Source of the DNA: Eledone cirrhosa
Taxonomy: Eukaryota
DNA: 64,000 nt
NCBI GenBank assembly: GCA_964016885.1
Contig: OZ024753.1
Coordinates: 38,564,001 to 38,628,000 of the forward strand
Reading direction: 5' to 3'
Made by a program: the position numbers and the translations under genes. Numbering within the stretch: the first letter of the stretch is position 1; each line of letters begins with the position of its first letter. Below are positions 20,438 to 20,832 of this stretch, one piece after another. A model generated the notes under the pieces. The model did no database searches. It was given only the letters and a program-made list of their open reading frames with translations, and was not told where the DNA came from.

Positions 20438-20832
20438 ATATAATTGAATATAAAAGAGAGATAAACACAGATATAAACATACATGTGTTCAAATCGTAAG
20501 GGACCAGGTGCGTTATTTTATATTCGCACACTATTCAGTCATCTGAGATATTTATAAGTGAAGGGATTACTAATTTTACACCCACTGATGAGCAAAGAAT
20601 TGGTAATTTCCTTCGCTAAAATTGCGAAACAGCCTACCATAAGCTGTCTGGGTGTTCCGGCAGTTGCCCAATATAGGTTTGTATTTCTTTTCTTGATTTA
20701 TTATTTTAAATTGAGTCTAGCAAATCACATTGTTAATAGTTAGTACTTTTTCACCGTAGCGAACCTGGTTCCTTATGATTTGAACACATGTATGTTTATA
20801 TCTCTGTTTATCTCTCTTTTATATTAAATTAT
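20438..20832 (+). mobile_element. Hammerhead element with an inverted copy of its own 3' end placed at the 5' side
   Basis: Arms 20438-20515 and 20757-20832 are reverse complements. They enclose an intact hammerhead. TA tract upstream. Confidence 0.75.
20578..20655 (+). ncRNA. Canonical type I hammerhead ribozyme (GUC triplet)
   Basis: Stem I ACACCCA/TGGGTGT, CTGATGA 20585-20591, stem II GCAA/TTGC with 26-nt loop, GAAA 20626-20629, stem III ACAGC/GCTGT, cleavage after C20648. Confidence 0.88.

Follow-up and report, generated by a model that had tools for sequence, protein, structure and literature searches.

Active hammerhead ribozymes hold stems I and II side by side, with their outer ends touching (PMC4209133). 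Pseudoknots in which Watson-Crick pairing connects the outer ends of stems I and II have been described in about 40% of hammerheads, among all three types; they comprise 4 bp or more, the tested examples have 5 and 6 bp, and activity falls 20- to over 100-fold when they are disrupted, while stem II may be as short as 1-2 bp (Perreault et al., 2011; PMC3088659). Knots of about 4 bp are reported in type III motifs (PMC7936874), and rearranged hammerhead forms have been described (PMC10085705). In the PK hammerhead 8YDC, which is reported to be fast, a 6-bp knot takes the place of helix II and pairs with the loop of an additional helix IV, while an A-rich strand crosses a minor groove (Zhan et al., 2024; PMC11300833). 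Hammerheads are also carried by two kinds of mobile repeats. The non-LTR retrozymes of animals are non-coding repeats of low GC content whose units lie head-to-tail and each carry one type I hammerhead, and their mobilisation by Penelope-like elements (PLEs) has been proposed (PMC7229834; Li et al., 2026, 10.64898/2026.07.22.740005). The PLEs themselves carry type I hammerheads and are marked by 5' truncation, partial tandems, inverted 5' copies and (TA)n targeting; their pseudo-LTR hammerheads are mostly minimal, without helix III, and are thought to cut as dimers (PMC4209133; PMC8557442).

The window, a stretch of 64,000 nucleotides from Eledone cirrhosa (contig OZ024753.1, positions 38,564,001 to 38,628,000 of the forward strand), contains a repeat that shares features with both kinds. 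Positions 20504-20893 (plus strand) are a direct copy, 390 bp long, truncated at its 5' end and 92.6% identical, of a retrozyme-like unit of 518 bp that is arranged head-to-tail. At the 5' end of this copy, positions 20438-20515 (minus strand) form an inverted partial copy of 20757-20834, a Penelope-type insertion mark, which adjoins a (TA)n tract at about 20391-20431. Candidate copies of the region number 1,329 in the 3.0-Gb genome, and the 40 that were scored are 91-100% identical. Among 28 close loci, 17 have the 5' inverted copy, 24 adjoin (TA)4 or longer, 22 terminate at either of two fixed sites, and more than one unit is present at 11. A pattern built on stem II and the core matched the genome exactly at 580 places (control 0), and a clade-wide pattern at 2,002 (control 3). 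Eight two-hammerhead tandems of the window clade have units of 493-550 nt with a GC content of 0.31-0.36 and appear non-coding by frame length, the longest ATG frame in each of the eight monomers being 31-111 aa. Judged from these copies, the host repeat is a mobile, retrozyme-like element that bears insertion marks of the Penelope type. The alternative that its 78-bp inverted arms denote a MITE was ruled out by the locus-variable length of the inverted copy and its absence from 11 of the 28 loci. Directly after the truncated 3' end of the element lie about 2.5 tandem copies of a 150-bp unit (20921-21304; 98% identical).

A Pfam search of 60 of the 61 frames of at least 130 aa in the fetched loci, the omitted frame being a duplicate, revealed no autonomous partner. 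The Pfam hits to reverse transcriptase (RT) and GIY-YIG domains in these loci belong to neighbouring elements, and the PLE-like frames near the repeats in loci L114/L181 and L182 are separate insertions. Such neighbours include a GIY-YIG frame (L181:4460-5092; Pfam E 0.006) and a frame that is, by motif, presumably Penelope-like (L182:3391-4149). A pattern scan of metagenomes returned 118 matches, of which one had plausible stems and none was similar to the units. As in the non-LTR retrozymes, the units are head-to-tail, low in GC and apparently non-coding, with one type I hammerhead each; unlike them, they measure 486-550 nt, compared with about 170-400 nt (a descriptive range, no strict limit), and they lack the canonical loop 1/loop 2 contact (PMC7229834; Li et al., 2026, 10.64898/2026.07.22.740005). 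With the PLE hammerheads the element has in common the type I hammerhead, 5' truncation, tandems that are partial, (TA)n targeting and inverted copies at the 5' end; it differs from them in a stem III of 5 bp (up to ~30 bp) and in that a linked RT/GIY-YIG frame was not found in the fetched loci (PMC4209133; PMC8557442).

By sequence, positions 20578-20655 are an intact type I hammerhead with its core and three stems, for which cleavage is predicted. The 5' strand of stem I (20578-20584, plus strand, as are all motif elements) forms 7 bp with 20649-20655, the 3' strand and start of the predicted 3' product. It is followed by the CUGAUGA core (20585-20591) and by arm II (20592-20625), in which the 4-bp stem II GCAA/UUGC (20592-95/20622-25) closes a 26-nt loop II. 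The segment 20626-20648 holds the GAAA core (20626-29), a 5-bp stem III (20629-33/20643-47) and the GUC triplet, with the predicted cut after C20648. The type I signature CUGANGA...GAAA...NUH, with the pairs A15.1-U16.1 and G10.1-C11.1, is thus represented by CUGAUGA, GAAA and GUC, and stem I is open-ended. In alignment A1 (55 rows, unadjusted MAFFT; 57 copies were picked, four with duplications or a replaced flank were removed and two were added), the CUGAUGA columns are invariant, in part owing to the search pattern. Both-sided changes affect 5/7, 2/3 and 3/5 pairs of stems I, II and III, counts in which the 3' columns are misassigned in 7 of the 55 rows; with corrected sites, the stems in those lineages are full. 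In nine of the ten lineages with a located cleavage site, GUC is the most frequent triplet. Neither at the gathering score nor with E relaxed to 10 did Rfam detect the hammerhead, a miss that the 26-nt loop II probably explains; the repeats represent a class of genomic hammerheads missed by Rfam. Canonical metazoan type I hammerheads have an extended stem I with an internal loop on which a small loop II docks; here, loop II is large and pairing of the 5' flank with the 3' tail is at background.

The window copy has a long complementarity between the 5' flank of the hammerhead (20557-20577, plus strand) and loop II. The first-pass annotation had described a pairing of ~19 bp, with G.U pairs and one bulge, between 20557-20575 and loop II, and this is borne out: 20557-20566 and 20608-20617 form 10 bp with two G.U pairs, 20567-20575 and 20598-20606 form 9 bp with one, and U20607 is bulged between the two segments. 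The same annotation placed loop II at 20598-20617, which is the paired part of it; the whole loop spans 20596-20621. The linkers UU (20576-77) and AG (20596-97) could add two optional junction pairs, giving 21 bp, and the return linker from the helix to stem II is AAAA (20618-21, 4 nt). The flank:loop II duplex has a predicted energy of -23.1 kcal/mol, reached by 1 of 5000 dinucleotide shuffles of loop II (shuffle mean -9.1), and the fold of the 116-nt region has a z-score of -3.0, with 1 of 200 shuffles as good. The view that the helix is unusually long is upheld by the comparison of 15-21 bp among these repeats with the tested knots of 5-6 bp in Perreault et al. (2011).

Conservation of the helix was followed in a sample made up of the contig C1 matches listed for the stem II/core pattern, the first 30 of another listing and 40 places hand-picked for diversity. 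It amounted to 167 distinct motifs in 42 clusters; eight motifs with a replaced flank were removed. Eleven lineages (A, B, C, C2, E, F1, F2, G, H, J and K) account for 124 copies, and ten one-copy clusters of the clade stand outside them. The stem I/III filter passed 103 copies, to which one lineage E copy was added manually; each lineage contributed at most 14 copies to z-scores and 10 to matrices, and lineages E and K are represented by one copy each. BLAST similarity to the window unit (about 70-93%) was found in A, B, C, C2, E, G, F1 and F2 and not in H, J and K.

Among 30 close copies, which were chosen by likeness, 25 retain 18-19 of the 19 pairs. Across lineages, flank and loop II pair better than shuffles in 11/11 cases with differing sequences (median z -2.2 to -5.0, 10-22 bp), so the suggestion that the pairing might be a local inverted duplication unique to this copy does not hold. 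The same lineages show flank:3' tail pairing at background (z +1.0 to -1.5). Duplexes of flank and loop II from the same lineage average -16.9 kcal/mol, compared with -10.3 for cross-lineage pairings, and the own-lineage assignment is the best of 40,320 permutations in the eight deep lineages and the best of 120 in the five lineages that share BLAST similarity. Because passive decay would weaken own and cross matches alike, the permutation test should control for a shared complementary ancestor. This bears on the idea that the helix descends from an old inverted duplication in a founder element and has been inherited without selection on pairing. Such decay predicts equal duplexes rather than own-lineage ones that are 6-7 kcal/mol stronger, and the helix is kept in units only 70-83% identical; although similar short words are common to flank, loop II and tail, and no single pair reaches significance in a tree-aware test, passive inheritance is hardly credible.

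Within A1, pairing is kept in 80% of flank:loop II cells, and both strands change in 11 of the 18 pairs, with swaps such as U-A (24 rows) for A-U (22), A-U (30) for G-C (9), and G-C (21) for U-A (6). The covariation score was matched by 0/500 shuffles, a shuffle that ignores relatedness, the number of covarying pairs by 35/500 and the pair types by 10/500. The central third of the helix is often mismatched, three pairs being unpaired in 21-25 of the 55 rows and one in 30, and its distal columns 11-13 are paired in 77-94% of cells; at the distal AAGUG/CAC end, the sequence itself is conserved along with the pairing. By eye, a 3-nt insertion in the flank is mirrored by an insertion in the loop in L049, L082 and L110. 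The covariation among genomic copies proposed earlier as a check is seen as matched changes between lineages; it did not extend to the tree-aware, R-scape-like test of 128 copies, in which no pair was significant. Of the flank:loop pairs, the best came 4th (E 5-7); the stem II control came 3rd (E 4-5), and since this control was also non-significant, the test lacked power. Decayed copies and few independent events limit covariation power, and RNAalifold recovered no consensus pair whatsoever from A1. Taken together, these comparisons indicate that the helix as a whole is under selection, with no single pair proved.

Other pairings were also considered. An extended stem I, in which the flank pairs with the 3' tail, was rejected: 78% of its cells pair, but only 2/11 pairs change on both sides, its score was reached by 136/500 A1 shuffles, and it stood at 2622 of 40,320 permutations with corrected sites. 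The loop II:loop III pairing and a loop III:tail exchange were at background against shuffles; loop II:loop III had a small own-lineage excess of 1.7 kcal/mol (p about 0.001) and stood at 8 of 120 permutations, with the F1/F2 sites misplaced.

The position of the helix suggests what it might do. Median linkers to both stem I and stem II are 0-3 nt in 9/11 lineages, and because the helix thus lies at the ends of these stems, where known activating contacts lie, the geometry favours an activating pseudoknot. Stem II has only 2-3 contiguous bp, closing a ~30-nt loop, in C2, F1, F2 and K, and would therefore need outside support, of the kind that pseudoknots lend in tested hammerheads (PMC3088659). 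The predicted probability of the helix is 0.99 as soon as loop II has been transcribed. Without the flank, the window RNA is predicted to misfold (-23.4 compared with -14.0 kcal/mol, stem II probability 0.00), with loop II pairing to the GAAA core and loop III. When the helix bases are masked, the probabilities of stems I, II and III in the window copy become 0.95, 0.84 and 0.93; masking clearly raises G10.1-C11.1 pairing in 6/11 lineages and fails to rescue stem II in C2, G, F1, F2 and J. ViennaRNA cannot score a pseudoknot, and it is with this limit that the best nested window fold must be read, in which the helix is kept and stems I and II are absent (-32.5, compared with -14.0 kcal/mol for the unclamped hammerhead).

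It is probable that the flank:loop II helix is a pseudoknot clamp of 11-18 bp, formed during transcription and keeping the ribozyme in its cutting shape, with about three distal pairs fraying in the window copy. The complementarity on which it depends has been retained through matched changes across lineages. Once loop II is transcribed, the predicted helix would enclose the 5' strand of stem I, CUGAUGA and the 5' strand of stem II in a loop of 18-22 nt and would keep loop II off loop III and the GAAA core. Onto the enclosed loop, stems II, III and I could then form, and the proximal 11-18 bp would tether the end of stem I to that of stem II. By analogy with known retrozymes, multimeric transcripts would be cut to ~520-nt monomers or circles, which a Penelope-like reverse transcriptase would copy into (TA)n tracts.

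Closure of the clamp was estimated with a rough ruler of 2.8 A per pair and 6 A per step, assuming coaxial stacking. On this ruler, the full 19-21 bp stacked on stem II would be too long for the 4-nt return linker, and about three distal pairs would have to open; in the window subfamily their fraying would let the linker reach stem II. Opening three pairs is predicted to cost about 4.7 kcal/mol in the window copy, compared with about 5.9 gained from stem II. The number of pairs that must open is 0-3 in eight lineages and 6-7 in E, H and J, and the linkers might just reach without coaxial stacking. As modelled, the distal end of the helix is not tuned to closure, which counts against the clamp.

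The same distal pairs bear on an opposite role. As a hairpin formed before the core and very stable when scored as such (-20.7 kcal/mol), the full helix could block stem II, damping nascent cleavage or shielding ligated circles, and would have to open for activity. Its full length exceeds the reach of the 4-nt return linker, and its distal pairs stay conserved although a clamp would not need them. Furthermore, the helix creeps into the 5' strand of stem II when allowed, using G10.1 in 25 of 42 lineage C copies, and such extension is possible in B, C, G, F2 and K, while the nested minimum-energy fold pairs tail positions 20660-65 with the 3' strand of stem II. Yet CUGAUGA, GAAA and most of stem I are left unpaired in the window copy. 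In viroid folds the inhibitor is aimed at the hammerhead core, and the window helix is unlike such inhibitors. Removing the helix is predicted to yield a worse misfold, not a hammerhead; the helix is present in only 3/8 predicted monomer circles of the window clade; and so stable a first-formed helix would need release, for which the candidate hand-over of the flank to the 3' tail shows no covariation. An off-state hairpin therefore appears unlikely. Of the two roles named in the first-pass annotation, an activating pseudoknot or a competing hairpin that switches cleavage off, the former is favoured by geometry and the latter less likely, a choice that sequence cannot decide.

A further reading is a tunable two-state, H-type pseudoknot of 1.5-2 helical turns made before the core, which when frayed would permit cutting of the multimer and when zipped would silence the circle. 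This possibility is doubtful; if true, the helix would act as an intrinsic timer of retrozyme circle formation, kept in some 2,000 copies and at least eight lineages. A role apart from catalysis, in which the helix shapes the circular RNA or serves as a handle for a partner reverse transcriptase with little effect on cleavage, would accord with the description of retrozyme circles as highly self-paired in PMC7229834, with the sequence conservation of the distal AAGUG/CAC end, and with the stem III of ~30 bp in F1 and F2, which makes long helices common in the element. Such a role would not require the proximal end to lie at the ends of stems I and II, as it does in 9/11 lineages, and the helix is absent from 5/8 predicted circles; this explanation is quite improbable.

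The putative clamp can be placed among the described knots. Like those of Perreault et al. (2011), it would join the outer ends of stems I and II through at least 4 bp, a pairing here predicted and conserved; unlike them, it has 15-21 bp, a central bulge and a loop II of 26-30 nt. It resembles PK hammerhead 8YDC in having a loop II pseudoknot helix, here predicted to be part of the active fold, and differs in that stem II remains (2-5 bp; 4 bp in the window copy) and that loop II pairs with a 5' flank, which is single-stranded and about three times longer (PMC11300833). No helix IV of the 8YDC type appeared in the window folds. Full-text searches of the open literature showed no hammerhead knot above 6 bp and no such retrozyme helix, with the proviso that Dataset S1 and Fig. 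S4 of Perreault et al. (2011) may hold longer ones, and the main text of PMC7229834 never uses the term 'pseudoknot'. Pseudoknotted hammerheads and retrozyme-like repeats are both known, and the long flank:loop II clamp, as predicted here, would be the longest found described. As a candidate replacement for the canonical contact, it is about three times longer than the tested pseudoknots, and it opens to testing the question of how retrozymes are cut as multimers yet persist as circles. Natural variation among the copies in the lengths of the helix, the linkers and stem III, and in the strength of stem II, provides a ready-made mutagenesis series.

Several further hammerhead-like arrangements were observed. 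In F1 and F2 (L141-L160), stem III has grown to a hairpin of ~30 bp (66-nt arm), while GUC and a perfect stem I of 7-8 bp are kept; a copy in L160 with half of the long stem III deleted still closes stems I and III. Other type I families with a long arm II (L117, L121, L131, L132, L137 and L138; L118 and L134; L120, L122, L139, L140 and L180) have a 5-8-bp match between flank and loop II beside the junction and a hairpin within loop II, with units of 486-488 nt in two tandems. In four other families the short flank:loop II pairing was not above shuffles (z +0.2 to -1.8). L111, L136 and L167-L170 have CUGANGA and GAAAC motifs with stems unfit for the type I order; they may be rearranged hammerheads. 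L182 and L183 lie about 109 kb from each other and share 99.6% identity across 3.3 kb, a likeness that reflects a recent segmental repeat or an assembly duplication, and a third motif identical to theirs lies about 96 kb further on. Elsewhere in the window, short hammerhead cores occur in inverted pairs typical of Penelope-type ends at 4231-4357, 13264-14465 and 28035-28247; in the last of these, stem II is long and a palindromic (AT)n stands where stem III would be, resembling minimal dimer-type motifs. Two more compact hammerhead-like cores, at 16554-16603 (plus strand) and 33528-33577 (minus strand), belong to one family.
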